DNA from: Balanoglossus misakiensis
Taxonomy: Eukaryota > Animalia > Hemichordata
Reading direction: 5' to 3'
DNA length: 64,000 bases
NCBI GenBank assembly: GCA_040954595.2
Contig: CM082587.2
Span: forward strand, 11,835,262-11,899,261
This document shows, one piece after another, positions 5,901-30,200 of the stretch. The notes below the pieces were generated by a model that was not told the origin of the DNA, made no database searches, and worked only from the letters and a program-made list of their open reading frames with translations. Every line of letters begins with the position of its first letter. The first letter of the stretch is position 1. The translations under genes and the position numbers were made by a program.

Positions 5901-8900
5901 ATTTAATTGGCAAGCCGTCCTGCATCAATTATTAATTGTGTACATGCACTAAAGCGCCCTCACTGCTGGGTGTGTTGTATGGTCTTTAACCCTGTTTCAA
6001 ATTAGAGTACTTTCTGCAATTTCAAGACAGATCTTACGTGCCATTGGAGAGCTCCATTGACTGGTCATTCATACTGTTTTCATTCATTCATTGCGGCATC
6101 AATATATTTTATCTATTCTAGCCAAAGAGCTTGGCACCTGTTGAAATGAACTCATCTGCTGTGGGCCAGTTTATTGGTGGCAGTTGAGCTGAGAAGAGCA
6201 CCTTCCTTCCCGGCACGCCACCAAGTAAAGTTCCACGCCGCCCACCACAGATGCCAGCATTCATTCATGCGAGTGAGTGTAATTGCAAATTTGCCTATTC
6301 TAGATCTGTAATGGAAATGGAGAAAGTACCTTATATTTTCTGTAAAATAGACATTTAATTGGCAAGCCGTCCTGCATCAATTATGAATTGTGTACATGCA
6401 CTAAAGCGCCCTCACTGCTGGGTGTGTTGTATGGTCTTTAACCCTGTTTCAAATTAGAGTACTTTCTGCAATTTCAAGACAGATCTTACGTGCCATTGGA
6501 GAGCTCCATTGACTGGTCATTCATACTGTTTTCATTCATTCATTGCGGCATCAATATATTTTATCTATTCTAGCCAAAGAGCTTGGCACCTGTTGAAATG
6601 AACTCATCTGCTGTGGGCCAGTTTATTGGTGGCAGTTGAGCTGAGGAGAGCACCTTCCTTCCCGGCACGCCACCAAGTAAAGTTCCACGCCGCCCACCAC
6701 AGATGCCAGCATTCATTCATGCGAGTGAGTGTAATTGCAAATTTGCCTATTCTAGATCTGTAATGGAAATGGAGAAAGTACCTTATATTTTCTGTAAAAT
6801 AGACATTTAATTGGCAAGCCGTCCTGCATCAATTATGAATTGTGTACATGCACTAAAGCGCCCTCACTGCTGGGTGTGTTGTATGGTCTTTAACCCTGTT
6901 TCAAATTAGAGTACTTTCTGCAATTTCAAGACAGATCTTACGTGCCATTGGAGAGCTCCATTGACTGGTCATTCATACTGTTTTCATTCATTCATTGCGG
7001 CATCAATATATTTTATCTATTCTAGCCAAAGAGCTTGGCACCTGTTGAAATGAACTCATCTGCTGTGGGCCAGTTTATTGGTGGCAGTTGAGCTGAGGAG
7101 AGCACCTTCCTTCCCGGCACGCCACCAAGTAAAGTTCCACGCCGCCCACCACAGATGCCAGCATTCATTCATGCGAGTGAGTGTAATTGCAAATTTGCCT
7201 ATTCTAGATCTGTAATGGAAATGGAGAAAGTACCTTATATTTTCTGTAAAATAGACATTTAATTGGCAAGCCGTCCTGCATCAATTATGAATTGTGTACA
7301 TGCACTAAAGCGCCCTCACTGCTGGGTGTGTTGTATGGTCTTTAACCCTGTTTCAAATTAGAGTACTTTCTGCAATTTCAAGACAGATCTTACGTGCCAT
7401 TGGAGAGCTCCATTGACTGGTCATTCATACTGTTTTCATTCATTCATTGCGGCATCAATATATTTTATCTATTCTAGCCAAAGAGCTTGGCACCTGTTGA
7501 AATGAACTCATCTGCTGTGGGCCAGTTTATTGGTGGCAGTTGAGCTGAGGAGAGCACCTTCCTTCCCGGCACGCCACCAAGTAAAGTTCCACGCCGCCCA
7601 CCACAGATGCCAGCATTCATTCATGCGAGTGAGTGTAATTGCAAATTTGCCTATTCTAGATCTGTAATGGAAATGGAGAAAGTACCTTATATTTTCTGTA
7701 AAATAGACATTTAATTGGCAAGCCGTCCTGCATCAATTATGAATTGTGTACATGCACTAAAGCGCCCTCACTGCTGGGTGTGTTGTATGGTCTTTAACCC
7801 TGTTTCAAATTAGAGTACTTTCTGCAATTTCAAGACAGATCTTACGTGCCATTGGAGAGCTCCATTGACTGGTCATTCATACTGTTTTCATTCATTCATT
7901 GCGGCATCAATATATTTTATCTATTCTAGCCAAAGAGCTTGGCACCTGTTGAAATGAACTCATCTGCTGTGGGCCAGTTTATTGGTGGCAGTTGAGCTGA
8001 GAAGAGCACCTTCCTTCCCGGCACGCCACCAAGTAAAGTTCCACGCCGCCCACCACAGATGCCAGCATTCATTCATGCGAGTGAGTGTAATTGCAAATTT
8101 GCCTATTCTAGAATCTTACGTGCCATTGGAGAGCTCCATTGACTGGTCATTCATACTGTTTTCATTCATTCATTGCGGCATCAATATATTTTATCTATTC
8201 TAGCCAAAGAGCTTGGCACCTGTTGAAATGAACTCATCTGCTGTGGGCCAGTTTATTGGTGGCAGTTGAGCTGAGGAGAGCACCTTCCTTCCCGGGACGC
8301 CACCAAGTAAAGTTCCACGCCGCCCACCACAGATGCCAGCATTCATTCATGCGAGTGAGTGTAATTGCAAATTTGCCTATTCTAGATTCTTACGTGCCAT
8401 TGGAGAGCTCCATTGACTGGTCATTCATACTGTTTTCATTCATTCATTGCGGCATCAATATATTTTATCTATTCTAGCCAAAGAGCTTGGCACCTGTTGA
8501 AATGAACTCATCTGCTGTGGGCCAGTTTATTGGTGGCAGTTGAGCTGAGGAGAGCACCTTCCTTCCCGGCACGCCACCAAGTAAAGTTCCACGCCGCCCA
8601 CCACAGATGCCAGCATTCATTCATGCGAGTGAGTGTAATTGCAAATTTGCCTATTCTAGATCTGTAATGGAAATGGAGAAAGTACCTTATATTTTCTGTA
8701 AAATAGACATTTAATTGGCAAGCCGTCCTGCATCAATTATGAATTGTGTACATGCACTAAAGCGCCCTCACTGCTGGGTGTGTTGTATGGTCTTTAACCC
8801 TGTTTCAAATTAGAGTACTTTCTGCAATTTCAAGACAGATCTTACGTGCCATTGGAGAGCTCCATTGACTGGTCATTCATACTGTTTTCATTCATTCATT

Positions 8901-10011
8901 GCGGCATCAATATATTTTATCTATTCTAGCCAAAGAGCTTGGCACCTGTTGAAATGAACTCATCTGCTGTGGGCCAGTTTATTGGTGGCAGTTGAGCTGA
9001 GGAGAGCACCTTCCTTCCCGGCACGCCACCAAGTAAAGTTCCACGCCGCCCACCACAGATGCCAGCATTCATTCATGCGAGTGAGTGTAATTGCAAATTT
9101 GCCTATTCTAGATCTGTAATGGAAATGGAGAAAGTACCTTATATTTTCTGTAAAATAGACATTTAATTGGCAAGCCGTCCTGCATCAATTATGAATTGTG
9201 TACATGCACTAAAGCGCCCTCACTGCTGGGTGTGTTGTATGGTCTTTAACCCTGTTTCAAATTAGAGTACTTTCTGCAATTTCAAGACAGATCTTACGTG
9301 CCATTGGAGAGCTCCATTGACTGGTCATTCATACTGTTTTCATTCATTCATTGCGGCATCAATATATTTTATGTATTCTAGCCAAAGAGCTTGGCACCTG
9401 TTGAAATGAACTCATCTGCTGTGGGCCAGTTTATTGGTGGCAGTTGAGCTGAGGAGAGCACCTTCCTTCCCGGCACGCCACCAAGTAAAGTTCCACGCCG
9501 CCCACCACAGATGCCAGCATTCATTCATGCGAGTGAGTGTAATTGCAAATTTGCCTATTCTAGATCTGTAATGGAAATGGAGAAAGTACCTTATATTTTC
9601 TGTAAAATAGACATTTAATTGGCAAGCCGTCCTGCATCAATTATTAATTGTGTACATGCACTAAAGCGCCCTCACTGCTGGGTGTGTTGTATGGTCTTTA
9701 ACCCTGTTTCAAATTAGAGTACTTTCTGCAATTTCAAGACAGATCTTACGTGCCATTGGAGAGCTCCATTGACTGGTCATTCATACTGTTTTCATTCATT
9801 CATTGCGGCATCAATATATTTTATCTATTCTAGCCAAAGAGCTTGGCACCTGTTGAAATGAACTCATCTGCTGTGGGCCAGTTTATTGGTGGCAGTTGAG
9901 TTGAGGAGAGCACCTTCCTTCCCGGCACGCCACCAAGTAAAGTTCCACGCCGCCCACCACAGATGCCAGCATTCATTCATGCGAGTGAGTGTAATTGCAA
10001 ATTTGCCTATT

Positions 10012-10025
10012 CTAGAATTCTTACG
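10012..10025. other. MITE-loss scar type D, CTAGAATTCTTACG (275-bp monomer, 3 copies near 10.0, 38.0 and 51.4 kb)
   Basis: Read directly. Copies are marked by the 63-aa minus-strand ORFs and linked to the GAGTTGAGG SNP. Confidence 0.85.
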
Positions 10026-13000
10026 TGCCATTGGAGAGCTCCATTGACTGGTCATTCATACTGTTTTCATTCATTCATTGCGGCATCAATATATTTTATG
10101 TATTCTAGCCAAAGAGCTTGGCACCTGTTGAAATGAACTCATCTGCTGTGGGCCAGTTTATTGGTGGCAGTTGAGCTGAGGAGAGCACCTTCCTTCCCGG
10201 CACGCCACCAAGTAAAGTTCCACGCCGCCCACCACAGATGCCAGCATTCATTCATGCGAGTGAGTGTAATTGCAAATTTGCCTATTCTAGATCTGTAATG
10301 GAAATGGAGAAAGTACCTTATATTTTCTGTAAAATAGACATTTAATTGGCAAGCCGTCCTGCATCAATTATGAATTGTGTACATGCACTAAAGCGCCCTC
10401 ACTGCTGGGTGTGTTGTATGGTCTTTAACCCTGTTTCAAATTAGAGTACTTTCTGCAATTTCAAGACAGATCTTACGTGCCATTGGAGAGCTCCATTGAC
10501 TGGTCATTCATACTGTTTTCATTCATTCATTGTGGCATCAATATATTTTATCTATTCTAGCCAAAGAGCTTGGCACCTGTTGAAATGAACTCATCTGCTG
10601 TGGGCCAGTTTATTGGTGGCAGTTGAGCTGAGGAGAGCACCTTCCTTCCCGGCACGCCACCAAGTAAAGTTCCACGCCGCCCACCACAGATGCCAGCATT
10701 CATTCATGCGAGTGAGTGTAATTGCAAATTTGCCTATTCTAGAATTACGTGCCATTGGAGAGCTCCATTGACTGGTCATTCATACTGTTTTCATTCATTC
10801 ATTGCGGCATCAATATATTTTATCTATTCTAGCCAAAGAGCTTGGCACCTGTTGAAATGAACTCATCTGCTGTGGGCCAGTTTATTGGTGGCAGTTGAGC
10901 TGAGGAGAGCACCTTCCTTCCCGGCACGCCACCAAGTAAAGTTCCACGCCGCCCACCACAGATGCCAGCATTCATTCATGCGAGTGAGTGTAATTGCAAA
11001 TTTGCCTATTCTAGATCTGTAATGGAAATGGAGAAAGTACCTTATATTTTCTGTAAAATAGACATTTAATTGGCAAGCCGTCCTGCATCAATTATTAATT
11101 GTGTACATGCACTAAAGCGCCCTCACTGCTGGGTGTGTTGTATGGTCTTTAACCCTGTTTCAAATTAGAGTACTTTCTGCAATTTCAAGACAGATCTTAC
11201 GTGCCATTGGAGAGCTCCATTGACTGGTCATTCATACTGTTTTCATTCATTCATTGCGGCATCAATATATTTTATCTATTCTAGCCAAAGAGCTTGGCAC
11301 CTGTTGAAATGAACTCATCTGCTGTGGGCCAGTTTATTGGTGGCAGTTGAGCTGAGAAGAGCACCTTCCTTCCCGGCACGCCACCAAGTAAAGTTCCACG
11401 CCGCCCACCACAGATGCCAGCATTCATTCATGCGAGTGAGTGTAATTGCAAATTTGCCTATTCTAGATCTGTAATGGAAATGGAGAAAGTACCTTATATT
11501 TTCTGTAAAATAGACATTTAATTGGCAAGCCGTCCTGCATCAATTATGAATTGTGTACATGCACTAAAGCGCCCTCACTGCTGGGTGTGTTGTATGGTCT
11601 TTAACCCTGTTTCAAATTAGAGTACTTTCTGCAATTTCAAGACAGATCTTACGTGCCATTGGAGAGCTCCATTGACTGGTCATTCATACTGTTTTCATTC
11701 ATTCATTGCGGCATCAATATATTTTATCTATTCTAGCCAAAGAGCTTGGCACCTGTTGAAATGAACTCATCTGCTGTGGGCCAGTTTATTGGTGGCAGTT
11801 GAGCTGAGGAGAGCACCTTCCTTCCCGGCACGCCACCAAGTAAAGTTCCACGCCGCCCACCACAGATGCCAGCATTCATTCATGCGAGTGAGTGTAATTG
11901 CAAATTTGCCTATTCTAGATCTGTAATGGAAATGGAGAAAGTACCTTATATTTTCTGTAAAATAGACATTTAATTGGCAAGCCGTCCTGCATCAATTATG
12001 AATTGTGTACATGCACTAAAGCGCCCTCACTGCTGGGTGTGTTGTATGGTCTTTAACCCTGTTTCAAATTAGAGTACTTTCTGCAATTTCAAGACAGATC
12101 TTACGTGCCATTGGAGAGCTCCATTGACTGGTCATTCATACTGTTTTCATTCATTCATTGCGGCATCAATATATTTTATCTATTCTAGCCAAAGAGCTTG
12201 GCACCTGTTGAAATGAACTCATCTGCTGTGGGCCAGTTTATTGGTGGCAGTTGAGCTGAGGAGAGCACCTTCCTTCCCGGCACGCCACCAAGTAAAGTTC
12301 CACGCCGCCCACCACAGATGCCAGCATTCATTCATGCGAGTGAGTGTAATTGCAAATTTGCCTATTCTAGATCTGTAATGGAAATGGAGAAAGTACCTTA
12401 TATTTTCTGTAAAATAGACATTTAATTGGCAAGCCGTCCTGCATCAATTATGAATTGTGTACATGCACTAAAGCGCCCTCACTGCTGGGTGTGTTGTATG
12501 GTCTTTAACCCTGTTTCAAATTAGAGTACTTTCTGCAATTTCAAGACAGATCTTACGTGCCATTGGAGAGCTCCATTGACTGGTCATTCATACTGTTTTC
12601 ATTCATTCATTGCGGCATCAATATATTTTATGTATTCTAGCCAAAGAGCTTGGCACCTGTTGAAATGAACTCATCTGCTGTGGGCCAGTTTATTGGTGGC
12701 AGTTGAGCTGAGGAGAGCACCTTCCTTCCCGGCACGCCACCAAGTAAAGTTCCACGCCGCCCACCACAGATGCCAGCATTCATTCATGCGAGTGAGTGTA
12801 ATTGCAAATTTGCCTATTCTAGATCTGTAATGGAAATGGAGAAAGTACCTTATATTTTCTGTAAAATAGACATTTAATTGGCAAGCCGTCCTGCATCAAT
12901 TATTAATTGTGTACATGCACTAAAGCGCCCTCACTGCTGGGTGTGTTGTATGGTCTTTAACCCTGTTTCAAATTAGAGTACTTTCTGCAATTTCAAGACA

Positions 13001-16000
13001 GATCTTACGTGCCATTGGAGAGCTCCATTGACTGGTCATTCATACTGTTTTCATTCATTCATTGCGGCATCAATATATTTTATCTATTCTAGCCAAAGAG
13101 CTTGGCACCTGTTGAAATGAACTCATCTGCTGTGGGCCAGTTTATTGGTGGCAGTTGAGCTGAGGAGAGCACCTTCCTTCCCGGCACGCCACCAAGTAAA
13201 GTTCCACGCCGCCCACCACAGATGCCAGCATTCATTCATGCGAGTGAGTGTAATTGCAAATTTGCCTATTCTAGAATTACGTGCCATTGGAGAGCTCCAT
13301 TGACTGGTCATTCATACTGTTTTCATTCATTCATTGCGGCATCAATATATTTTATCTATTCTAGCCAAAGAGCTTGGCACCTGTTGAAATGAACTCATCT
13401 GCTGTGGGCCAGTTTATTGGTGGCAGTTGAGCTGAGGAGAGCACCTTCCTTCCCGGCACGCCACCAAGTAAAGTTCCACGCCGCCCACCACAGATGCCAG
13501 CATTCATTCATGCGAGTGAGTGTAATTGCAAATTTGCCTATTCTAGATCTGTAATGGAAATGGAGAAAGTACCTTATATTTTCTGTAAAATAGACATTTA
13601 ATTGGCAAGCCGTCCTGCATCAATTATGAATTGTGTACATGCACTAAAGCGCCCTCACTGCTGGGTGTGTTGTATGGTCTTTAACCCTGTTTCAAATTAG
13701 AGTACTTTCTGCAATTTCAAGACAGATCTTACGTGCCATTGGAGAGCTCCATTGACTGGTCATTCATACTGTTTTCATTCATTCATTGCGGCATCAATAT
13801 ATTTTATCTATTCTAGCCAAAGAGCTTGGCACCTGTTGAAATGAACTCATCTGCTGTGGGCCAGTTTATTGGTGGCAGTTGAGCTGAGGAGAGCACCTTC
13901 CTTCCCGGCACGCCACCAAGTAAAGTTCCACGCCGCCCACCACAGATGCCAGCATTCATTCATGCGAGTGAGTGTAATTGCAAATTTGCCTATTCTAGAA
14001 TCTTACGTGCCATTGGAGAGCTCCATTGACTGGTCATTCATACTGTTTTCATTCATTCATTGCGGCATCAATATATTTTATCTATTCTAGCCAAAGAGCT
14101 TGGCACCTGTTGAAATGAACTCATCTGCTGTGGGCCAGTTTATTGGTGGCAGTTGAGCTGAGGAGAGCACCTTCCTTCCCGGCACGCCACCAAGTAAAGT
14201 TCCACGCCGCCCACCACAGATGCCAGCATTCATTCATGCGAGTGAGTGTAATTGCAAATTTGCCTATTCTAGATCTGTAATGGAAATGGAGAAAGTACCT
14301 TATATTTTCTGTAAAATAGACATTTAATTGGCAAGCCGTCCTGCATCAATTATTAATTGTGTACATGCACTAAAGCGCCCTCACTGCTGGGTGTGTTGTA
14401 TGGTCTTTAACCCTGTTTCAAATTAGAGTACTTTCTGCAATTTCAAGACAGATCTTACGTGCCATTGGAGAGCTCCATTGACTGGTCATTCATACTGTTT
14501 TCATTCATTCATTGCGGCATCAATATATTTTATCTATTCTAGCCAAAGAGCTTGGCACCTGTTGAAATGAACTCATCTGCTGTGGGCCAGTTTATTGGTG
14601 GCAGTTGAGCTGAGAAGAGCACCTTCCTTCCCGGCACGCCACCAAGTAAAGTTCCACGCCGCCCACCACAGATGCCAGCATTCATTCATGCGAGTGAGTG
14701 TAATTGCAAATTTGCCTATTCTAGATCTGTAATGGAAATGGAGAAAGTACCTTATATTTTCTGTAAAATAGACATTTAATTGGCAAGCCGTCCTGCATCA
14801 ATTATGAATTGTGTACATGCACTAAAGCGCCCTCACTGCTGGGTGTGTTGTATGGTCTTTAACCCTGTTTCAAATTAGAGTACTTTCTGCAATTTCAAGA
14901 CAGATCTTACGTGCCATTGGAGAGCTCCATTGACTGGTCATTCATACTGTTTTCATTCATTCATTGCGGCATCAATATATTTTATCTATTCTAGCCAAAG
15001 AGCTTGGCACCTGTTGAAATGAACTCATCTGCTGTGGGCCAGTTTATTGGTGGCAGTTGAGCTGAGGAGAGCACCTTCCTTCCCGGCACGCCACCAAGTA
15101 AAGTTCCACGCCGCCCACCACAGATGCCAGCATTCATTCATGCGAGTGAGTGTAATTGCAAATTTGCCTATTCTAGATCTGTAATGGAAATGGAGAAAGT
15201 ACCTTATATTTTCTGTAAAATAGACATTTAATTGGCAAGCCGTCCTGCATCAATTATGAATTGTGTACATGCACTAAAGCGCCCTCACTGCTGGGTGTGT
15301 TGTATGGTCTTTAACCCTGTTTCAAATTAGAGTACTTTCTGCAATTTCAAGACAGATCTTACGTGCCATTGGAGAGCTCCATTGACTGGTCATTCATACT
15401 GTTTTCATTCATTCATTGCGGCATCAATATATTTTATCTATTCTAGCCAAAGAGCTTGGCACCTGTTGAAATGAACTCATCTGCTGTGGGCCAGTTTATT
15501 GGTGGCAGTTGAGCTGAGGAGAGCACCTTCCTTCCCGGCACGCCACCAAGTAAAGTTCCACGCCGCCCACCACAGATGCCAGCATTCATTCATGCGAGTG
15601 AGTGTAATTGCAAATTTGCCTATTCTAGATCTGTAATGGAAATGGAGAAAGTACCTTATATTTTCTGTAAAATAGACATTTAATTGGCAAGCCGTCCTGC
15701 ATCAATTATGAATTGTGTACATGCACTAAAGCGCCCTCACTGCTGGGTGTGTTGTATGGTCTTTAACCCTGTTTCAAATTAGAGTACTTTCTGCAATTTC
15801 AAGACAGATCTTACGTGCCATTGGAGAGCTCCATTGACTGGTCATTCATACTGTTTTCATTCATTCATTGCGGCATCAATATATTTTATCTATTCTAGCC
15901 AAAGAGCTTGGCACCTGTTGAAATGAACTCATCTGCTGTGGGCCAGTTTATTGGTGGCAGTTGAGCTGAGAAGAGCACCTTCCTTCCCGGCACGCCACCA

Positions 16001-19000
16001 AGTAAAGTTCCACGCCGCCCACCACAGATGCCAGCATTCATTCATGCGAGTGAGTGTAATTGCAAATTTGCCTATTCTAGAATCTTACGTGCCATTGGAG
16101 AGCTCCATTGACTGGTCATTCATACTGTTTTCATTCATTCATTGCGGCATCAATATATTTTATCTATTCTAGCCAAAGAGCTTGGCACCTGTTGAAATGA
16201 ACTCATCTGCTGTGGGCCAGTTTATTGGTGGCAGTTGAGCTGAGGAGAGCACCTTCCTTCCCGGGACGCCACCAAGTAAAGTTCCACGCCGCCCACCACA
16301 GATGCCAGCATTCATTCATGCGAGTGAGTGTAATTGCAAATTTGCCTATTCTAGATTCTTACGTGCCATTGGAGAGCTCCATTGACTGGTCATTCATACT
16401 GTTTTCATTCATTCATTGCGGCATCAATATATTTTATCTATTCTAGCCAAAGAGCTTGGCACCTGTTGAAATGAACTCATCTGCTGTGGGCCAGTTTATT
16501 GGTGGCAGTTGAGCTGAGGAGAGCACCTTCCTTCCCGGCACGCCACCAAGTAAAGTTCCACGCCGCCCACCACAGATGCCAGCATTCATTCATGCGAGTG
16601 AGTGTAATTGCAAATTTGCCTATTCTAGATCTGTAATGGAAATGGAGAAAGTACCTTATATTTTCTGTAAAATAGACATTTAATTGGCAAGCCGTCCTGC
16701 ATCAATTATTAATTGTGTACATGCACTAAAGCGCCCTCACTGCTGGGTGTGTTGTATGGTCTTTAACCCTGTTTCAAATTAGAGTACTTTCTGCAATTTC
16801 AAGACAGATCTTACGTGCCATTGGAGAGCTCCATTGACTGGTCATTCATACTGTTTTCATTCATTCATTGCGGCATCAATATATTTTATCTATTCTAGCC
16901 AAAGAGCTTGGCACCTGTTGAAATGAACTCATCTGCTGTGGGCCAGTTTATTGGTGGCAGTTGAGCTGAGGAGAGCACCTTCCTTCCCGGCACGCCACCA
17001 AGTAAAGTTCCACGCCGCCCACCACAGATGCCAGCATTCATTCATGCGAGTGAGTGTAATTGCAAATTTGCCTATTCTAGATCTGTAATGGAAATGGAGA
17101 AAGTACCTTATATTTTCTGTAAAATAGACATTTAATTGGCAAGCCGTCCTGCATCAATTATGAATTGTGTACATGCACTAAAGCGCCCTCACTGCTGGGT
17201 GTGTTGTATGGTCTTTAACCCTGTTTCAAATTAGAGTACTTTCTGCAATTTCAAGACAGATCTTACGTGCCATTGGAGAGCTCCATTGACTGGTCATTCA
17301 TACTGTTTTCATTCATTCATTGCGGCATCAATATATTTTATGTATTCTAGCCAAAGAGCTTGGCACCTGTTGAAATGAACTCATCTGCTGTGGGCCAGTT
17401 TATTGGTGGCAGTTGAGCTGAGGAGAGCACCTTCCTTCCCGGCACGCCACCAAGTAAAGTTCCACGCCGCCCACCACAGATGCCAGCATTCATTCATGCG
17501 AGTGAGTGTAATTGCAAATTTGCCTATTCTAGATCTGTAATGGAAATGGAGAAAGTACCTTATATTTTCTGTAAAATAGACATTTAATTGGCAAGCCGTC
17601 CTGCATCAATTATTAATTGTGTACATGCACTAAAGCGCCCTCACTGCTGGGTGTGTTGTATGGTCTTTAACCCTGTTTCAAATTAGAGTACTTTCTGCAA
17701 TTTCAAGACAGATCTTACGTGCCATTGGAGAGCTCCATTGACTGGTCATTCATACTGTTTTCATTCATTCATTGCGGCATCAATATATTTTATCTATTCT
17801 AGCCAAAGAGCTTGGCACCTGTTGAAATGAACTCATCTGCTGTGGGCCAGTTTATTGGTGGCAGTTGAGCTGAGGAGAGCACCTTCCTTCCCGGCACGCC
17901 ACCAAGTAAAGTTCCACGCCGCCCACCACAGATGCCAGCATTCATTCATGCGAGTGAGTGTAATTGCAAATTTGCCTATTCTAGAATTACGTGCCATTGG
18001 AGAGCTCCATTGACTGGTCATTCATACTGTTTTCATTCATTCATTGCGGCATCAATATATTTTATCTATTCTAGCCAAAGAGCTTGGCACCTGTTGAAAT
18101 GAACTCATCTGCTGTGGGCCAGTTTATTGGTGGCAGTTGAGCTGAGGAGAGCACCTTCCTTCCCGGCACGCCACCAAGTAAAGTTCCACGCCGCCCACCA
18201 CAGATGCCAGCATTCATTCATGCGAGTGAGTGTAATTGCAAATTTGCCTATTCTAGATCTGTAATGGAAATGGAGAAAGTACCTTATATTTTCTGTAAAA
18301 TAGACATTTAATTGGCAAGCCGTCCTGCATCAATTATGAATTGTGTACATGCACTAAAGCGCCCTCACTGCTGGGTGTGTTGTATGGTCTTTAACCCTGT
18401 TTCAAATTAGAGTACTTTCTGCAATTTCAAGACAGATCTTACGTGCCATTGGAGAGCTCCATTGACTGGTCATTCATACTGTTTTCATTCATTCATTGCG
18501 GCATCAATATATTTTATCTATTCTAGCCAAAGAGCTTGGCACCTGTTGAAATGAACTCATCTGCTGTGGGCCAGTTTATTGGTGGCAGTTGAGCTGAGGA
18601 GAGCACCTTCCTTCCCGGCACGCCACCAAGTAAAGTTCCACGCCGCCCACCACAGATGCCAGCATTCATTCATGCGAGTGAGTGTAATTGCAAATTTGCC
18701 TATTCTAGATCTGTAATGGAAATGGAGAAAGTACCTTATATTTTCTGTAAAATAGACATTTAATTGGCAAGCCGTCCTGCATCAATTATGAATTGTGTAC
18801 ATGCACTAAAGCGCCCTCACTGCTGGGTGTGTTGTATGGTCTTTAACCCTGTTTCAAATTAGAGTACTTTCTGCAATTTCAAGACAGATCTTACGTGCCA
18901 TTGGAGAGCTCCATTGACTGGTCATTCATACTGTTTTCATTCATTCATTGCGGCATCAATATATTTTATCTATTCTAGCCAAAGAGCTTGGCACCTGTTG

Positions 19001-19080
19001 AAATGAACTCATCTGCTGTGGGCCAGTTTATTGGTGGCAGTTGAGCTGAGGAGAGCACCTTCCTTCCCGGCACGCCACCA

Positions 19081-20884
19081 AGTAAAGTTCCACGTGCATT
19101 CCTGGCCCTGGTTTTATTTATGTTTACAGACAATATTGCATTTTTGTACAAGTATTTTAATCAACTATAAATTTTGAATGTGTCATTTACCTGAACCGGT
19201 CATGTTGACCAGAATGATACATTTCTGCCTTCACTCACCCTATAAATATGTGATTGAGACATAGGTCATTTGCATAAGCTAACATACCAGAAAGTAAGCA
19301 TATCTGTTGTTTTCCCTGTGTCACTGCCATCAAAGTAAAAATTAGACGTTGTGTAGAGCAAACTCCAATTTTTTGTTCTCAATAAACATGGATGAATTAC
19401 ATAGAATGTGTTTGTTGTTTACAGTCTTTAAATGACACATTAGATTATGCACTTTACAAAACGTTTCTGAGAAACAAGTGACTAACTAGTTTCTTTCCAC
19501 TGTGGCCAACGTGGTTCACTGTTTGTGTCAGAATCTCTCTGTTTTGCAAGGATTTTGAAATCATAGTGGTGACATGCATAGTGAAAATCAGCTACTTTCA
19601 AATGTCCGTCATGTTCATGCTGTAATTGAATTTTCAAAGCTGGGCTGGCGTGTTTTTTCTTATTTACATAAGTATCACACTTTATACATGTATCTTCATG
19701 GGGTTTTTTGAGTCCCGTATTTAGGTCCTCTCTCACAATTTTACGAAATATCGTATAACTGACAGTTGTTCTTCCCAGAAGAGATTGGTTGGTTATGAAC
19801 TCTCGGTGTAACTGCGATATACTGTGGTCCGGCGCCAGGTACGGTTTAAATCGAGGATTCCTGCAGTAGTGAGATTCTACAATTCTGTGCCTGCGTACGT
19901 GTTCAGTGATATCAGTCAGCAAATTTGGATTGAGTTTCCGACGATGCCCTTTGTGTCGGCCCCTTGCATCTGGCATCAGACCAGTAAAGTTCCATGTGCA
20001 TTCCTGGCCCTGGTTTTATTTATGTTTACAGACAATATTGCATTTTTGTACAAGTATTTTAATCAACTATAAATTTTGAATGTGTCATTTACCTGAACCG
20101 GTCATGTTGACCAGAATGATACATTTCTGCCTTCACTCACCCTATAAATATGTGATTGAGACATAGGTCATTTGCATAAGCTAACATACCAGAAAGTAAG
20201 CATATCTGTTGTTTTCCCTGTGTCACTGCCATCAAAGTAAAAATTAGACGTTGTGTAGAGCAAACTCCAATTTTTTGTTCTCAATAAACATGGATGAATT
20301 ACATAGAATGTGTTTGTTGTTTACAGTCTTTAAATGACACATTAGATTATGCACTTTACAAAACGTTTCTGAGAAACAAGTGACTAACTAGTTTCTTTCC
20401 ACTGTGGCCAACGTGGTTCACTGTTTGTGTCAGAATCTCTCTGTTTTGCAAGGATTTTGAAATCATAGTGGTGACATGCATAGTGAAAATCAGCTACTTT
20501 CAAATGTCCGTCATGTTCATGCTGTAATTGAATTTTCAAAGCTGGGCTGGCGTGTTTTTTCTTATTTACATAAGTATCACACTTTATACATGTATCTTCA
20601 TGGGGTTTTCTGAGTCCCGTATTTAGGTCCTCTCTCACAATTTTACGAAATATCGTATAACTGACAGTTGTTCTTCCCAGAAGAGATTGGTTGGTTATGA
20701 ACTCTCGGTGTAACTGCGATATACTGTGGTCCGGCGCCAGGTACGGTTTAAATCGAGGATTCCTGCAGTAGTGAGATTCTACAATTCTGTGCCTGCGTAC
20801 GTGTTCAGTGATATCAGTCAGCAAATTTGGATTGAGTTTCCGACGATGCCCTTTGTGTCGGCCCCTTGCATCTGGCATCAGACC
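19081..20884. repeat. 902-bp direct tandem duplication (19081-19982 / 19983-20884)
   Basis: Same sequence at offset 902 (ORF stops at 19482 and 20384). Two differences seen: 19093 C/19995 T and 19708 T/20610 C. Confidence 0.97.
19482..19976 (-). pseudogene. 5'-truncated duplicate of the transposase N-half gene (164 aa from an internal Met)
   Basis: Identical to the last 164 aa of 20384-21340 except GLKKP vs GLRKP. Created by the 902-bp duplication. Confidence 0.85.
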
Positions 20885-21340
20885 AGTTGAACAGTGCATC
20901 ATTTTGCTTAGAACGGTTCTAGTCCGCCTCTCACTAATGCCAAATAATTTCAGGAATGCATTTTTGCAGACAGTAACCGTTTCACCGCCTTCATTCACCA
21001 GGTGATAACGAACCGATTTCTTGTGTGACTTCATCTGTATATCCATCAGTTTGTAGAGCATCAAGTTCTGTTCATTATACACGCGACCATCAAAATATTT
21101 TCTCGTGGTGCCTAAAACATGCGTACTCCCAAGCTTCCGCAGACAATTCCCTTGAACGCAGGCGCATTCCAAGGAAAGACTGTCAATATCTGGAAAAGGG
21201 CGATTTTTCCTTGGTTTTTGTCTCGGACACGTCTTTTTAGAATTCCTACGTGGCTTGTTGGCTCGAGCTGACAGTTCGGTTCTGCGTTGCTGCCACACAG
21301 GAATGGGTTCCCACGCATAAGCAACTCCCCGGCAGGCCAT
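20384..21340 (-). CDS. Transposase N-terminal half (Cys/His-rich DNA-binding region, Sola1-like), 318 aa
   Basis: Motifs CACVQGNC, VTVCKNAFLKLFGISERR, DARGRH, ESHYCR, YL..., KPHEDTCIKCD and H..H occur in the order typical of the N-terminal part of this transposase family. True ATG at 21340 in ACCATGG context; the ORF track start at 21346 is GTG. Confidence 0.8.
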   Translation of the reverse strand: MACRGVAYAWEPIPVWQQRRTELSARANKPRRNSKKTCPRQKPRKNRPFPDIDSLSLECACVQGNCLRKLGSTHVLGTTRKYFDGRVYNEQNLMLYKLMDIQMKSHKKSVRYHLVNEGGETVTVCKNAFLKLFGISERRTRTVLSKMMHCSTGLMPDARGRHKGHRRKLNPNLLTDITEHVRRHRIVESHYCRNPRFKPYLAPDHSISQLHREFITNQSLLGRTTVSYTIFRKIVREDLNTGLRKPHEDTCIKCDTYVNKKKHASPALKIQLQHEHDGHLKVADFHYACHHYDFKILAKQRDSDTNSEPRWPQWKETS

Positions 21341-21511
21341 GGTCACAGCTGAAGTATTTGTTCAAGTACTGACTGACTAAACGCGGCATGGAACAAACGA
21401 ACGAACGAACGAACGACTTCACGTTCGGAAAAAAAATCGTTGCGAGCTGTTGGGTGCCTCTATAGTTGTCGGCAACCGTTCTTTTTTATTGCTAAACAAT
21501 GCTGTCAGAGC
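21341..21511. promoter_or_regulatory. 171-bp divergent intergenic region (putative bidirectional promoter) with (AACG)5 at 21396-21415
   Basis: Lies between two divergent ATGs that both have good Kozak context. Promoter function is inferred only from geometry. Confidence 0.5.
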
Positions 21512-22525
21512 ATGGAAGGTGTGGTGGAAAACGAACAGAGGTTTTGTACGACCAACGATTGGATGGTGCTACATATGGACTTCCACAAGTCATTGCCGGT
21601 TCCTAAACTCAGCTCTGAAGACTTTTACTTTAAATCGAAATTGCAAATGAAGCTCCTTGGAATTTACAACGGGACAACGGAAAAGATGCATTGTTATGTA
21701 TGGACAGAGCTCGATAGCAGAAAGTCTCCCGATGAAGTTATTACCTGTCTAAATCACTTTTTTTATAACTCGGGTGTGACCAGCAGACATGCAGTTATTT
21801 ACAGCGACAACTGCCGTGCCGAATTCAAGTGTGGGAAGTTAATGTTTTACTATGACTATCTGTTACGAAAGGGCGTGTTTCGACGAATTGACTATAAAAC
21901 TCTTGTGGCTGGACACACGTACTCCACCTGTGACCGAGTTTTTGCGTCCATTGAAAGGCATGCAAGTCGTTTCCAGAGTATAGAGACACCTCACGATTGG
22001 ACATCTGTGATTCGAGGATCTTCTCTGAATGGGAACATTGGAGTTACGGAGATGACTCACAGAGACTTTTTCAATTATTCTGATTTCCTGAAAAATGAGT
22101 ACGTTGTGCGTTATGCAGATACAAACAATGTAACTTTTTACTACCAAGCCATGCACTATTTTAATTTTGGAGAAGGAGAAAGGCTTGATACCGACGGCAA
22201 CCTCAGAACATTTAGTCATGCAGATAAAGTTTGGGTGAGAACATCTCTAGATCCAAGCGAGACCCCGATTGTAGTCGACTTTAGAAAGAAGAAGCAGAAC
22301 CGGCGTTTACAAGATTGTACGCTGAACAAACTTTATCAGGAACGTCGACCACTGGCGAGCAAAGTTTGGCGGGATCTTCAGAGTTTAGCCAAAAATTACC
22401 TGTCTCCGGAGGCAATAGAATTTTATAGGAATCTACCGCTTCAGGAGAGTAGTGGCACCTCTGCAGACCCGTACGCCTTTCATGATGATGACGACGACGA
22501 TGATGATGATATGGGCGGTGGTTGA
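21512..22525 (+). CDS. Transposase catalytic half (RNase H-fold DDD, Sola1-like), 337 aa with acidic C-terminal tail
   Basis: Motifs VLHMDFHKSLPVP, FYFKSKL, CYVWTE, DEVITCL, IYSDNCRAEFK and VAGHTYSTCDRVFASIE give the D, D, H-x4-D signature. ATG at 21512 in AGCATGG. Tail HDDDDDDDDDMGGG. Confidence 0.88.
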   Translation: MEGVVENEQRFCTTNDWMVLHMDFHKSLPVPKLSSEDFYFKSKLQMKLLGIYNGTTEKMHCYVWTELDSRKSPDEVITCLNHFFYNSGVTSRHAVIYSDNCRAEFKCGKLMFYYDYLLRKGVFRRIDYKTLVAGHTYSTCDRVFASIERHASRFQSIETPHDWTSVIRGSSLNGNIGVTEMTHRDFFNYSDFLKNEYVVRYADTNNVTFYYQAMHYFNFGEGERLDTDGNLRTFSHADKVWVRTSLDPSETPIVVDFRKKKQNRRLQDCTLNKLYQERRPLASKVWRDLQSLAKNYLSPEAIEFYRNLPLQESSGTSADPYAFHDDDDDDDDDMGGG

Positions 22526-22685
22526 ACAAACTGTCCTTTTCATGACGACAGTGATTTTGGATATTTGATGTGCGTGCACAGTTTATATGTAATATTTTCA
22601 CACGAACGAGTTTTGACTGAATTTGATTAAAGAATGTACTCGATAATTAACAAATGTGCTGAATCGTGGTTATTATGTTGTTAAT

Positions 22686-22711
22686 TTTTGTTTGTTTGTT
22701 TGTTTGTTTGT
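22686..22711. repeat. (TTTG)n microsatellite downstream of the catalytic gene
   Basis: TTTTGTTTGTTTGTTTGTTTGTTTGT read directly. An ATTAAA poly(A)-signal candidate lies at 22626-22631. Confidence 0.8.
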
Positions 22712-23008
22712 AAACAATTTCCGTTCATTCAACTGGCTACAAAGTTGGATTTTTGTACTGGGAAGCGATAAACTCGCACATCAAAACCGGGGAGACTCGA
22801 TCATTTTTCCCTGCAGGTAGCCTGAAAAGCACCCGGGCAGAGATTACGTCATATATGGTCCACTTTAATACGAAATTATGCAAATGTGACATTTCACGGA
22901 AACGGCGTATATAAAAGCGACCCTGGGCTATTGTTCGGAATGCGTCATCGACGAGAGAGTGACTGATAATTCTTCTACCTCGAGTCAACCATTCTGTATA
23001 TACTGAAC

Positions 23009-24335
23009 ATGGCTAGCTGGCGCAGGAAGAGACAAGGCAATGTGCGGTCTGTAATCAACGAACGGCACCGCTCAGTTCAGTGTCCCTTTCTTCAAAAGTG
23101 GATCGGTGAGCAATTGGTATTTTCAGGTCGTTCAGAGGATGAAGTCCAGTCCAGTACTGTATTTGAGAGCTACAAATGTTGGGTTGAAAACTATTCGTCG
23201 GCGGACAATCAAGTAATGATTATGGTTACTAAAGCTCGATTTTTCAAGGTGAGAATGATCGCATTTTTCTTCCCCCCCCCCCTCCCTCCCCCAAGGGACT
23301 CGTTTTCTGTCTCTTTTAAACCTGTAACTTAACGAAAAGGAAGTTTTTCACATATCTCTTTGTTGACACTATAGCAATTTGGAGCGCGGATGCTTCAAGA
23401 GAATAGCGTTACCAAATCAAAGTCGGCCGGGGTTAATATTTATAGAGGTGTTCGTCTGAAAGCTGGTTCGCGAAGAATCTCAACGGGGAAACCTGAGCAC
23501 AGTGTACTTCAGACCAGGGCAAGGGCATTTCTTGATGACGCCAGCGTGACCGTTCCGATCGAGGTAAGAATGGTGTTTTGTTTGGACTAGGACAATAGAA
23601 CGTTGCAATGAGTGTGTCAATGGGTGTCCAAGTGCAAACGTGGTCGGCTTCTGTCCACAAATGCCATTAATTTTAGGCAGGATTTATAAAATTGTCAATG
23701 AAGAATACAAAAATGAAAAACAATAGTTAATAGCAAACGGGTAGGATTGCAAGGGCTTGTAAAACGGTACACACTGTACCAGGAAGTTTGCAACACTAAT
23801 GAAGAATGTATATGATATATTTAGGTGAGAACTGTTCGCGATCGCCGGGACGCAGGACGGTGCGCGTTTTCGACGAGGGATCTTCAAGCCTGGAACGTCG
23901 TCTGCGAATACCGGGGCACGGTTATTAGCGTTGAAGAAGCTAGTCGGCGTGATGAACTTTACAGGGCAGAGGGGAAACGACCACGCATGTTTCATCTCTA
24001 CATTGGAAAGAGACACGTTGTGTGAGTGTATCACTTAGTCGAATATATGGTCATATATTGCAAAGCATCTGTCGAAATAGAAAACGTAATATTGTCTATA
24101 TTTTCCTCATTAACGCAGCATTGACGGATACGATGTCCCAGCCGGTGAAGAAAATTTAGCGGGCCTAATAAATCACAGTCAGCAGAACGCCAACTTGGTA
24201 CCGGTTCGGATCGGAGAGCGCCTGGTTTTCTTTGCAACCAGGAATCTTTGTCAGGGAGTAGAGCTTTTGTATGATTACGGTGACGGGGGTGAAGAGGATT
24301 TCTTCAGTGGTTCTCAAACTTTTCCTGAAAATTAA
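23009..24335 (+). CDS. Spliced gene, 280 aa: N-terminal winged-helix-like domain + PR-Set7/SETD8-like SET methyltransferase; exons 23009-23248, 23375-23563, 23825-24021, 24119-24335
   Basis: Three GT-AG introns (AAG|GTGAGA, GAG|GTAAGA, GT|GTGAGT; acceptors ATAG, TTAG, GCAG) join in frame (843 nt). SET motifs GRCAFSTRD, VCEYRG, IDG, LAGLINHS and ELLYDYGD. N-terminus FLQKWI...VFESYKCW...FFKQFG...IYRGVRLK resembles RFX/D5-primase C-terminal winged helices. Confidence 0.88.
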
Positions 24336-25242
24336 GGCATTAACACATCAACGCTTCGGGATGTCGTAACGGCGGCAAGGCGGGGGGGGGGGGGGGGGGG
24401 CGTGAAAATGTTTGTATCAGGAACAAAATTCCCGTGCAAATCACCTTGATCCGGGTGGGTGGACTATTCGCGACAAATGTTGAAATCATACAAAGCATTT
24501 TACTTAATTAACCCATTTTTTTCATTTATTTGTTTACAGTTTACAACGTCATAGAGAAGTTGAACTAGAGACTGGATCAGCGTGGGTGACACCATAGTAC
24601 ACCAATGTTTTCTTCAGTTTGATTCAATTGTAATTTAAAACTGAGATTGCCTAACGCTTTCCCAGATTTTTTTAACCACTGAGAAACTGTGGGTTTTTTT
24701 CTGGGTTTTGGTGCGAGGTGATCTCAGTCAGTGGTGTTAATTTAATTAATCATTTTCTTTTCCTATTTACGTCGACTGAAATGTATTTTGATAGGTGATA
24801 GTCATACCATAAAAAAATCTTACGGCGCGACTGCCAAAATGTACATTTATTTGTCCGTTCCAAGTTATTTTGTGTATGTGTGATGGGTGCCGGTGACTGT
24901 GCAGGGTTGATTTCCCTAGAGCGACTGTTATATTCGTTTTCCAACGATGATGAATTTACATGTTATTTGCTTGGCATTTTGACGCAGAGACACTTCTGAA
25001 AACACAAACCTATTAATTATGCCACGGGTGTAAATTGATCACATTAAAAGAGGCTTTAGACGTTTGCCGCGAGCTCCTGGTGGGCAGAATCTTGTCAGCC
25101 CAAATTTGACTATAAGTACATAGCCAATGATGTGACGCTCTCCCACATCCTTCGCCGCGCCTTTTCGCTGATTTACAGCATCTTGCGTAAACACTGTCAT
25201 TTGATCTTGCTTGGCAGAAGTCAACTTGCTCTATACTACATT

Positions 25243-25608
25243 ATGGCGGCCAAGCTCAACTGCATATCAGATAATGCCAAGGAGCGTTTGAGAGGCATCC
25301 TCGCCAGAAGGAGTCGCGTTTCCGGTGACTGTGTGCTCTGGACGGGTGCAGCTTGTCGAAACGGCTATGGCTCTATTACGTTCAGAGATGAGAACACTCT
25401 AACCGCCTATGTCCATCACATTGCACTCCTAATTAACGGAGTGCAATTGGTGGGCAGGCGGTTAGAGTGTTCTCATCTTTGCAACGAAAAGCTATGCATC
25501 CGCCCAGAGCACATTGTCCAGGAAACGCGACTCCTAAACATTTCACGAAAGACGTGCTTTAAATCCCCAAAAGGGGAGTGTCACCACGATCCCAGGTGCC
25601 TAAGGTGA
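25243..25608 (+). CDS. His-Cys box / His-Me finger (HNH-like) endonuclease, 121 aa
   Basis: Motifs DCVLWTGA, NGYG, YVHH, ECSHLCNEKLCIRPEHIVQE, NISRKTC and ECHHDPRC match the zinc-binding loop of I-PpoI-like homing endonucleases. ATG at 25243 (ATTATGG). The stop overlaps a possible AG|GTGAGT donor, so a further exon is possible. Confidence 0.85.
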   Translation: MAAKLNCISDNAKERLRGILARRSRVSGDCVLWTGAACRNGYGSITFRDENTLTAYVHHIALLINGVQLVGRRLECSHLCNEKLCIRPEHIVQETRLLNISRKTCFKSPKGECHHDPRCLR

Positions 25609-26592
25609 GTAATCCTCTTCTCATTTGATATGTATTGTGTGACCCTGCAGTTGAAACGCTTTCATCAATAATTTGCGGCGCGTGGGTAATCTCGGTGTTA
25701 TTGACAATGCAGCCGGCCCAAACATTTTTAAATTAACACTGTTTCTGACTGTATTAACGAAATGTCCAATTTGCAAGTAGCCTATAGACAACCCTTTTGA
25801 ATGAGTTTTGTCTCGTTGAGATTTTATACATAAGGAACAATCTAGATTTATTTTAGAAGACACTGTTCTTTTAAAACAGCTAGCATAATACAGCTAAATT
25901 TCGGAATTTCCGGACAATTTTCGGAATTCCTTTTAAATTTGAGAAATTTTTCATCAGATATAAGTGTTACTATTTATTGGACATGTTTTTATCATTGTTT
26001 ACTTTTTAAGGTCATTCTCATCCCCCCCCCCCCCCCCCAAAAAAAAAGCCGCTTTAGGCTTCATGTTCAGTAAAAAATCTGGAAAGTTCAGCTGAATTTT
26101 ACACTGATCACACATTTTTGGGAAGGTCTGGCGCAAAATAAAGGATGACAAATGTAAATCTAATGTCACATTTGTAAACCTCTAAGTATTGTACACTCAT
26201 TCTATTAAGTATATGCAAATAGTACGGATAATTTTTTCGGAATGTGGAATTCCGAAATTAGTTCGGAACGTGTTAGCAGTGAAGAGATCACCACTGAGGG
26301 TTGGAAGGCCTTGCCAGAAATTAACGCGTAAAGTACGCCCTCACAGGCCATGTAAACAAGGTCAAATAAGGCCGTCTGGCAAACGAATGATTAATTCAAC
26401 GCGCCATTTGAGCCGAGCTGAGTTGGTCTGAGTTGCGTATCACACAGACTTAGGCTGAATGTCAGTGGAGTAACCAGTCCGTTTTAGATTTACCAATGAT
26501 GTGAATTTAATTTCTTCACCCAGAAAAACAGAACACAACTTGTCTGCAACATGATGCTGGAGGTGACACATGACAGAGAAGTGGATCCGCGT

Positions 26593-26930
26593 TGTCAACA
26601 CAGATGCCAGCATTCAAAAGGGGAGTGCCACCTGCTAAAATCAACTCATCTGCTGTTGGCCCATTTTACCTGTGGCAACTGTTCAGAGGAGACAACGTTT
26701 ATTCCGTGCAAGCCAACACGCAATGTTGGGGTCTACCTGTCAACACAGATGCAAGCATTCATGTGAGTGAGTATCAGGACTGACCTTGTTTTGCTGAATA
26801 ATTCATAATGCCTATTTTAGAATTCTTAGAGGCATTTGGAGTTCATTGCCTGGTCAACCAAACTACACCCCTTAACAGCTGAAACAAAATGCGTATTGTG
26901 TTCATTCATTCATTGCTTCAATATATATAG
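26593..26930 (+). repeat. Diverged, MITE-free homolog of the satellite monomer inside the element
   Basis: Collinear blocks: CACCTGCTAAAATCAACTCATCTGCTGTTGGCC, GTGGCA, GAGGAGA, ACACAGATGCAAGCATTCATGTGAGTGAGT, TGCCTATTTTAGAATTCTTA, CATTGCCTGGTCA and TTCATTCATTCATTGC..TCAATATAT. Same orientation as the array. Confidence 0.9.
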
Positions 26931-27241
26931 GCAACATGAGTATCAAGTAGCACTATTTGTTTACGATTGTATTCATGAAAACTTCCCACTAACAATTCCA
27001 CAGTTAATATTGAACACATTTATCCAACAAGGTCAAAAGAAAAAGGGAATCTTCTGGTTCCAAAATACGCCACAAATGTGGGTCAACATACAGTGAAATA
27101 TTATGGTGCTCAAATATGCAACATATCAAATCTGTCTCATCAAAGTCATGCTTTAAAAAAGAATTGAAAAGGTATTATTTATCCATTTGACTGCTGTATT
27201 TTCAGAAGGAAAACAAACTGAATTTGGTTTTTCATGTACAA

Positions 27242-30200
27242 ATATTTTCTGTAAAATAGACATTTAATTGGCAAGCCGTCCTGCATCAATTATTAATTGT
27301 GTACATGCACTAAAGCGCCCTCACTGCTGGGTGTGTTGTATGGTCTTTAACCCTGTTTCAAATTAGAGTACTTTCTGCAATTTCAAGACAGATCTTACGT
27401 GCCATTGGAGAGCTCCATTGACTGGTCATTCATACTGTTTTCATTCATTCATTGCGGCATCAATATATTTTATGTATTCTAGCCAAAGAGCTTGGCACCT
27501 GTTGAAATGAACTCATCTGCTGTGGGCCAGTTTATTGGTGGCAGTTGAGCTGAGGAGAGCACCTTCCTTCCCGGCACGCCACCAAGTAAAGTTCCACGCC
27601 GCCCACCACAGATGCCAGCATTCATTCATGCGAGTGAGTGTAATTGCAAATTTGCCTATTCTAGATCTGTAATGGAAATGGAGAAAGTACCTTATATTTT
27701 CTGTAAAATAGACATTTAATTGGCAAGCCGTCCTGCATCAATTATTAATTGTGTACATGCACTAAAGCGCCCTCACTGCTGGGTGTGTTGTATGGTCTTT
27801 AACCCTGTTTCAAATTAGAGTACTTTCTGCAATTTCAAGACAGATCTTACGTGCCATTGGAGAGCTCCATTGACTGGTCATTCATACTGTTTTCATTCAT
27901 TCATTGCGGCATCAATATATTTTATCTATTCTAGCCAAAGAGCTTGGCACCTGTTGAAATGAACTCATCTGCTGTGGGCCAGTTTATTGGTGGCAGTTGA
28001 GCTGAGGAGAGCACCTTCCTTCCCGGCACGCCACCAAGTAAAGTTCCACGCCGCCCACCACAGATGCCAGCATTCATTCATGCGAGTGAGTGTAATTGCA
28101 AATTTGCCTATTCTAGAATTACGTGCCATTGGAGAGCTCCATTGACTGGTCATTCATACTGTTTTCATTCATTCATTGCGGCATCAATATATTTTATCTA
28201 TTCTAGCCAAAGAGCTTGGCACCTGTTGAAATGAACTCATCTGCTGTGGGCCAGTTTATTGGTGGCAGTTGAGCTGAGGAGAGCACCTTCCTTCCCGGCA
28301 CGCCACCAAGTAAAGTTCCACGCCGCCCACCACAGATGCCAGCATTCATTCATGCGAGTGAGTGTAATTGCAAATTTGCCTATTCTAGATCTGTAATGGA
28401 AATGGAGAAAGTACCTTATATTTTCTGTAAAATAGACATTTAATTGGCAAGCCGTCCTGCATCAATTATTAATTGTGTACATGCACTAAAGCGCCCTCAC
28501 TGCTGGGTGTGTTGTATGGTCTTTAACCCTGTTTCAAATTAGAGTACTTTCTGCAATTTCAAGACAGATCTTACGTGCCATTGGAGAGCTCCATTGACTG
28601 GTCATTCATACTGTTTTCATTCATTCATTGCGGCATCAATATATTTTATCTATTCTAGCCAAAGAGCTTGGCACCTGTTGAAATGAACTCATCTGCTGTG
28701 GGCCAGTTTATTGGTGGCAGTTGAGCTGAGGAGAGCACCTTCCTTCCCGGGACGCCACCAAGTAAAGTTCCACGCCGCCCACCACAGATGCCAGCATTCA
28801 TTCATGCGAGTGAGTGTAATTGCAAATTTGCCTATTCTAGATTCTTACGTGCCATTGGAGAGCTCCATTGACTGGTCATTCATACTGTTTTCATTCATTC
28901 ATTGCGGCATCAATATATTTTATCTATTCTAGCCAAAGAGCTTGGCACCTGTTGAAATGAACTCATCTGCTGTGGGCCAGTTTATTGGTGGCAGTTGAGC
29001 TGAGGAGAGCACCTTCCTTCCCGGCACGCCACCAAGTAAAGTTCCACGCCGCCCACCACAGATGCCAGCATTCATTCATGCGAGTGAGTGTAATTGCAAA
29101 TTTGCCTATTCTAGATCTGTAATGGAAATGGAGAAAGTACCTTATATTTTCTGTAAAATAGACATTTAATTGGCAAGCCGTCCTGCATCAATTATTAATT
29201 GTGTACATGCACTAAAGCGCCCTCACTGCTGGGTGTGTTGTATGGTCTTTAACCCTGTTTCAAATTAGAGTACTTTCTGCAATTTCAAGACAGATCTTAC
29301 GTGCCATTGGAGAGCTCCATTGACTGGTCATTCATACTGTTTTCATTCATTCATTGCGGCATCAATATATTTTATCTATTCTAGCCAAAGAGCTTGGCAC
29401 CTGTTGAAATGAACTCATCTGCTGTGGGCCAGTTTATTGGTGGCAGTTGAGCTGAGGAGAGCACCTTCCTTCCCGGCACGCCACCAAGTAAAGTTCCACG
29501 CCGCCCACCACAGATGCCAGCATTCATTCATGCGAGTGAGTGTAATTGCAAATTTGCCTATTCTAGAATTACGTGCCATTGGAGAGCTCCATTGACTGGT
29601 CATTCATACTGTTTTCATTCATTCATTGCGGCATCAATATATTTTATCTATTCTAGCCAAAGAGCTTGGCACCTGTTGAAATGAACTCATCTGCTGTGGG
29701 CCAGTTTATTGGTGGCAGTTGAGCTGAGGAGAGCACCTTCCTTCCCGGCACGCCACCAAGTAAAGTTCCACGCCGCCCACCACAGATGCCAGCATTCATT
29801 CATGCGAGTGAGTGTAATTGCAAATTTGCCTATTCTAGATCTGTAATGGAAATGGAGAAAGTACCTTATATTTTCTGTAAAATAGACATTTAATTGGCAA
29901 GCCGTCCTGCATCAATTATGAATTGTGTACATGCACTAAAGCGCCCTCACTGCTGGGTGTGTTGTATGGTCTTTAACCCTGTTTCAAATTAGAGTACTTT
30001 CTGCAATTTCAAGACAGATCTTACGTGCCATTGGAGAGCTCCATTGACTGGTCATTCATACTGTTTTCATTCATTCATTGCGGCATCAATATATTTTATC
30101 TATTCTAGCCAAAGAGCTTGGCACCTGTTGAAATGAACTCATCTGCTGTGGGCCAGTTTATTGGTGGCAGTTGAGCTGAGGAGAGCACCTTCCTTCCCGG

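Follow-up and report, generated by a model that had tools for sequence, protein, structure and literature searches.

A conserved gene fission in a DUF7869-type transposase lineage of marine animals

In a stretch of 64,000 nucleotides from the acorn worm Balanoglossus misakiensis (contig CM082587.2 of assembly GCA_040954595.2, positions 11,835,262 to 11,899,261; hereafter the window), two adjacent genes encode the parts of a putative transposase that distant relatives carry in one chain. The gene for the amino-terminal part (N-half; 20384..21340, minus strand) and the gene for the carboxyl-terminal part (C-half; 21512..22525, plus strand) are uninterrupted open reading frames (ORFs) of 318 and 337 amino acids. 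Together with their relatives, they show a gene fission that is conserved within a lineage of marine-animal transposases and in which the layout of the two genes is variable. We give a probability of about 0.66 to the reading that two proteins are made and reassemble, in which case the N-half would bind the ends of the element, the C-half would cut and join, and the conserved new ends of both would replace the linker.

Two open reading frames spanning one transposase

The two ORFs are arranged head to head, and their ATGs are separated by an intergenic region of 171 bp (21341..21511), which may serve as a shared promoter and whose length varies slightly among copies. The initial annotation, made from the sequence alone, had described two intact genes without frameshifts, each with its own Kozak ATG, and the ORF calls agree: both start codons have A at -3 and G at +4. 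The minus-strand ORF carries the N-terminal motifs through DTCIKCD (residues 249-255 of 318), and the plus-strand ORF begins about 20 amino acids before the first catalytic Asp, which is residue 23, both as originally described. As a control for chance ORFs, the 2142 bp of the pair were subjected to 1000 mononucleotide shuffles; the longest stop-free frame had a median of 98 amino acids and a maximum of 217, and a length of 318 was reached in 0 of 1000.

Misassembly had been named at the outset as a way in which the arrangement could be spurious. Contigs from runs X1 and X2 overlap across the junction in a continuous chain (20858-21436, 21407-21457, 21429-21484, and 21455-22567), and no strand switch or joint is listed there at a 1% threshold; run X3 yielded nothing that could be placed on the window. 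This chain excludes misassembly, yet gives no independent support, as both runs come from one sample that is possibly the source of the window assembly. In the main contigs 8 bp are missing at 21396, and some have an additional 4 bp at 21454; 171 bp is therefore the spacing of the window copy. Within both ORFs, the sole listed difference in X1 and X2 is one missense change at 21038.

The C-half matches PF25273 (DUF7869) in Pfam with an E-value of 1.1e-14. Of its three acidic residues, D23 is found in 48, D99 in 50, and D141 in all 51 of 51 aligned rows, with gaps accounting for the remainder. The structure model, with a predicted local distance difference test (pLDDT) score of 89.8, has a predicted RNase H-like fold and an acidic tail. 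Foldseek related this model to retroviral integrase cores (E 2.5e-4) and to the IstA transposase (E 7.3e-4); of 30 PDB matches with E-values no higher than 0.001, the ones listed are integrases and IstA, with modest template modelling scores of 0.25-0.32 over the query. With both the acidic residues and the fold found, the C-half is predicted to be the catalytic part of a DDD/E transposase. In the ESM Atlas it falls among DUF7869 clusters, which serve as leads only. Single-chain proteins with this domain are putatively "Sola1-like"; Pfam itself gives DUF7869 only.

The N-half, rich in cysteine and histidine, closes with a long helix predicted at residues 266-303 and a tail specific to its clade, and is the predicted DNA-binding part of a DUF7869-type transposase. 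Its model has a pLDDT of 83.6, with no PDB fold match at E 0.001 and no Pfam family at E 0.1. Among 1.84 billion proteins of any length, 2597 matched it at E 0.001; a word-based search confirmed none of 276 candidates, and the ESM Atlas placed it in eukaryotic clusters without names (again leads only). The Cys/His sites and the catalytic triad are intact in the window pair, and the two halves share no homology with each other.

Single-chain relatives connect the two genes. Of 163 proteins examined, 76 carried both halves in one chain, in line with the original expectation that these motifs normally lie in one polypeptide, while 81 matched just the N part, 5 just the C part, and the remaining 1 had neither; since many of the N-only rows are plain fragments, these prove nothing by themselves. 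The fused proteins match both halves in the same order and share the D-D-D triad, the GH motif, and the Cys/His sites. Both halves thus trace to the same single-chain family rather than to different transposase lineages, an outcome that the initial annotation had regarded as fatal to its proposal, and together they span one DUF7869-type DDD transposase. In fused relatives, the equivalents of D293 and D23 are 16 residues apart (12-17; 30 of 36 rows). The cut falls within this linker of about 16 residues, ahead of the first catalytic Asp. As the N-half extends 25 residues beyond D293 and the C-half begins 22 before D23, the cut is located in the loop that links the long helix to the first strand of the catalytic fold, with nothing conserved lost.

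A split point common to relatives

The same split point recurs in a clade of stand-alone N-halves and in a clade of stand-alone C-halves, which agrees with the original view that the pair is no decayed, copy-specific inversion; relatives with the same breakpoints have 30-51% identity. In a search with the N-half without length limit, ranks 1-8 of the 150 matches listed lacked the catalytic domain, and the first fused protein appeared at rank 9. The matches at ranks 1-6, of 306-347 amino acids, align over almost their full length and stop at the split point as well. A tail motif, drawn from the clade alignment itself, lies at most 21 residues from the C-terminus in 13 of 14 clade N-halves and in 0 of 48 fused proteins. 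Among the members is a protein of 359 amino acids from the coral Oculina patagonica (XP_078355980.1) that terminates at the N-half end, and the sea anemone Actinostola contributes a fragment-length member. One further clade N-half, P0050 (HAS44388.1), is filed under a bacterial metagenome-assembled genome of Microscillaceae and groups with the coral protein; it is likely host DNA in a bacterial bin.

On the catalytic side, the proteins P0001 and P0002 (the latter Saccoglossus XP_002739486.1) and the product of a metagenome locus, L001, all begin 15 residues before the first Asp and share an FC[ST][ST][ND]D motif that the window C-half has too, and the catalytic triad is intact in all three. 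The window C-half is 51% identical to P0001 and 47% to the Saccoglossus protein. Trees were built with 48 of the 76 fused rows, those that scored 60 or more against the C-profile and whose core was covered almost in full. In the C-half tree, a branch with support of 100/100 sets the 6 C-halves apart from the 48 fused proteins. Similarly, 16 N-halves and fragments form one side of a branch in the N-half tree (Shimodaira-Hasegawa-like approximate likelihood ratio test, 100) against the 48 fused proteins and P0013. None of the 48 fused proteins tested fell inside either clade. In both trees, L001 falls in a supported subgroup to which neither the window nor its best match belongs, and the trees agree where they are comparable. 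The best C-half match, P0001, and the best N-half match, P0004, each come from one 2400 bp Logan contig, and they may be neighbours on the same one. The relatives are scattered over cnidarians, a hemichordate, and other contigs, and shorter versions that appear to be broken are found in one 90% cluster. Viral contigs contained no relative of the N-half, the C-half, or the nuclease described below.

Metagenome scans yielded a confirmed locus in 0 of 188 stretches and then in 1 of 165 candidate stretches, namely L001, a contig of 2136 bp. On a single strand, it carries the final 102 codons of an N-half up to a stop, then 42 bp that include another in-frame stop, and after these the ATG that opens a C-half. 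Its C-half is interrupted by a 312 bp GT-AG intron after the first catalytic strand; P0162 and P0169 begin near the position of this intron, consistent with the same intron. Another match from the genome scan, L002, lies antisense to an unrelated bacterial gene and was dropped as due to chance.

The initial annotation had proposed looking for the same divergent split in other copies. The split was indeed found in L001; the divergence was not, as its halves are in tandem. The head-to-head layout, and with it a bidirectional promoter, can therefore no longer be seen as a defining feature: in L001, the only relative with readable DNA, the halves are in tandem, so the fission is independent of the divergent layout. 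Because the orientation differs between the window and L001, the fission is old, with one half inverted in one of the two lineages. A single fission, probably in the tandem state, would have required a stop and a new start inside the ancestral ORF; a later inversion of one half in the window lineage would have left both genes to be read from the 171 bp interval. We infer this order, fission and then inversion, as the simplest; it rests on ancestry in a single ORF and not on rooted loci.

A split Sola or DUF7869 transposase was not described in the titles found, a coverage that excludes Repbase and subscription journals, nor does the split form appear in the available parts of PMC5751038, PMC3985635, PMC10294476, PMC11071193, and bioRxiv 10.1101/2021.09.26.461848.

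The island and its other genes

The window is a satellite array of 452 bp and 272-274 bp units around one island of non-satellite DNA of 8.1 kb (19095..27241), which holds the N-half and C-half genes, a gene with a SET domain, and a gene for a His-Me finger nuclease. The initial annotation had overlooked the array, the two further genes, and the tandem duplication described below. Introns of spliceosomal type, along with the relatives that carry species names, indicate an animal genome. The island takes the place of about 95 bp of a satellite unit, with no duplication at its flanks and with the left and right junctions at different phases of the unit. No terminal inverted repeats joining its two ends were found; the true ends of the element may be lost. 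Some 20 bases in from the left junction (19095-19120) there is a minus-strand AATAAA, and for this reason the island starts close to the likely 3' end of the N-half transcript; the second copy of this signal is at 20020.

This second copy results from a tandem duplication with a period of 902 bp (19081-19985 and 19983-20887) that covers the 3' part of the N-half gene, with 2 differences in 905 bp. It gives rise to a second, 5'-truncated N-half ORF of 164 amino acids (19482..19976, minus strand). The duplication is represented by one collapsed contig whose depth in X1, 1564, is roughly double that of the adjoining contigs (754-770); these values are depths and not copy numbers. The roughly flat depth over the island, doubled over the duplication, fits amplification as a block with the satellite. 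The sub-array pattern of the satellite itself repeats at 27,971 bp (8388-16630 and 36359-44601), forming a very large higher-order repeat.

The predicted SET gene (23009..24335, plus strand) has four exons and encodes 280 amino acids that end in a SET domain; PF00856 matches the last exon at E 1.6e-7 and the third at 0.003. Its exon model is one open GT-AG solution among the sites tried. Exons 1-2 have no library match, and presumably resemble the winged-helix tail of D5-type primases. Diverged copies of the gene occur in X1, where 7 of the 9 listed differences in the last exon are synonymous.

Further downstream, an ORF of 121 amino acids (25243..25608, plus strand) encodes a His-Me finger endonuclease of the His-Cys box type (PF05551, E 2e-13); its PHROGs matches were to HNH families only. 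Wholly inside this ORF is a near-perfect hairpin of 227 nt (25309-25535) with 92 Watson-Crick and 7 G-U pairs. Its folding energy is -154.5 kcal/mol (z -17.3, 200 shuffles); by comparison, 200 synonymous recodings averaged -69.7, and the other strand gave -140.6. The hairpin could reflect a foldback event or act as a brake on the nuclease message. Both the SET and the nuclease genes adjoin the transposase pair and may be members of the same element.

Several other features lie toward the right end of the island. A short element from CACTG to CAGTG (25861-26281), with inverted arms at 25908-25930 and 26246-26268 and with loose ends in the reads, looks to us like a non-autonomous CACTA-type insertion. 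Positions 26593-26930 hold a diverged copy (about 71%) of the flanking satellite unit, possibly an older form of the satellite. Beside the right satellite junction, 26960-27240 has no Pfam match and is, by eye, presumably the degraded 3' end of a reverse transcriptase from a long interspersed nuclear element. No Rfam family was found in 19000-27800 at E 0.1.

Two known types of transposon invite comparison. In the available part of one account, Sola1 elements have a 4-bp AWWT target site duplication and an ORF of 630 amino acids (PMC3845634). That ORF is a single chain, as opposed to the two ORFs of the window and L001, and terminal inverted repeats and an AWWT duplication were not found at the island edges, where the true element ends may have been lost. 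KolobokP, as far as the accessible text goes, combines a DDD/E transposase with a small downstream His-Me finger nuclease in marine invertebrate hosts, and has terminal repeats of about 450 bp that form multimers by unequal crossover (PMC9587614). The window similarly has a His-Me finger nuclease downstream of the transposase pair, and its satellite unit of 452 bp is close in length to those repeats. Unlike that of KolobokP, however, the window transposase is of the DUF7869 type and split, a comparison made without direct alignment to a Kolobok reference. KolobokP's long terminal direct repeats also have inverted ends of 11-18 bp of their own, whereas the satellite unit, in all rotations, showed no terminal inverted repeats better than 10/12, nor do complete direct repeats flank the island. 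It is conceivable, though doubtful, that the whole 8-kb island is an undescribed multi-gene mobile element of marine animals, with a fission-born two-subunit transposase, a SET chromatin writer, and a hairpin-restrained His-Me nuclease, which lives in the satellite and drives its amplification by cutting.

A probable two-part enzyme and its alternatives

Proteins from a coral, an acorn worm, and other contigs show this cut as well, so the halves likely reassemble into a natural two-part enzyme. In such an enzyme, the N-half would bind the ends of the element and the C-half would cut and join DNA via D23/D99/D141, while the conserved new ends of both halves would form a contact in place of the covalent linker. 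Two reassembled proteins would then make up a working cut-and-paste transposase. Its operation would resemble that of PIF/Harbinger, with separate DNA-binding and catalytic proteins, but it would have originated when a single transposase was split. Harbinger ORF1, a Myb/SANT-like protein, is not a severed piece of the transposase, whereas the window genes both align to one ancestral chain. DDE_Tnp_4, Plant_tran, and Myb families were absent from either half at E 0.1, and on this sequence evidence the pair is not a member of PIF/Harbinger. In PIF/Harbinger, as described in the available portion of PMC10288884, DNA binding and catalysis reside on two proteins that form a transposition complex, in which ORF1 binds DNA and the TPase cuts.

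A number of observations weigh against reassembly into a working transposase. Both halves were found on DNA at two loci only, the window and L001, and L001 ends inside the N-half. At the island edges, neither terminal inverted repeats nor a target duplication were found, and the doubled depth over the duplication suggests a block spread with the satellite, not transposition. A later model of the Saccoglossus protein (XP_002739486.2) adds 38 N-terminal residues, which do not match the N-half profile. Word-limited searches found no partner C-half for the cnidarian-type N-halves; as the C-half searches covered only 185-590 and 168-590 amino acids, a close fused C-half would be visible only through the N-half search. 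Many of the database rows are ORF calls on eukaryotic contigs, which may end at introns. In addition, the stems of both clades are long, and it was likeness to the query that brought their members into the set.

Some of these observations suit an alternative in which the split is real and old, and the pair is either domesticated, with a role in the host or its chromatin, or a passive passenger in a satellite block amplified by unequal crossing-over. The replacement of about 95 bp of satellite unit without terminal repeats or target duplication, the near-flat depth with few variants, doubled over the duplication, and the adjoining SET gene all speak for it. Against this, the triad is intact in the window, P0001, P0002, and L001, and scattered relatives, along with a cluster holding apparently broken versions, fit a mobile family; we consider this alternative unlikely. 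The two genes could instead be neighbours that act separately; for example, the N-half might serve as a repressor or DNA-binding factor, and some other targeting partner might guide the C-half as a nuclease. The models predict that either half can fold by itself, and more N-half clade rows (16) than C-half rows (6) were found, although the higher sensitivity of the N-half search may explain these counts. The halves are adjacent at both loci read, in two different orientations, and their trees agree where comparable, which makes separate action improbable.

It is also very improbable that the halves are joined at the RNA level, by cis-splicing in tandem members and trans-splicing in the window, to yield one chain after all. 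The lineage has introns, as the L001 C-half illustrates, and L001 would formally allow the halves to be joined in frame by four GT-AG pairs; trans-splicing of exons on opposite strands reportedly occurs in Drosophila mod(mdg4). None of the four L001 donors is GTRAG, however, unlike that of the real L001 intron, and one join spans just 15 nt. Moreover, the last 137 nt of the window N-half contain no consensus-like donor, and any join would delete part of the conserved N-half tail or of the C-half start motif. Finally, a locus in repetitive DNA with a local duplication might be suspected of a copy-specific inversion or misassembly of an ordinary single-ORF transposase. The contig chain without strand switch, the identical breakpoints in relatives at 30-51% identity, and the own start, stop, and conserved new ends of each half argue otherwise. 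With the tandem arrangement of L001, this last explanation is already largely refuted, and we give it almost no weight.

For two-protein eukaryotic transposons such as Harbinger, the origin of the separate DNA-binding partner is not known. Here, a whole lineage appears to have reached the two-protein state by cutting one transposase, and the pair survives a change in orientation. The split provides a natural map of the domain boundary in a DUF7869-type family for which no relative with a solved structure was found by sequence. It also means that the targeting and catalytic parts of a transposase could be expressed, swapped, and dosed separately. Elements of this kind are readily mis-annotated as two broken pseudogenes.

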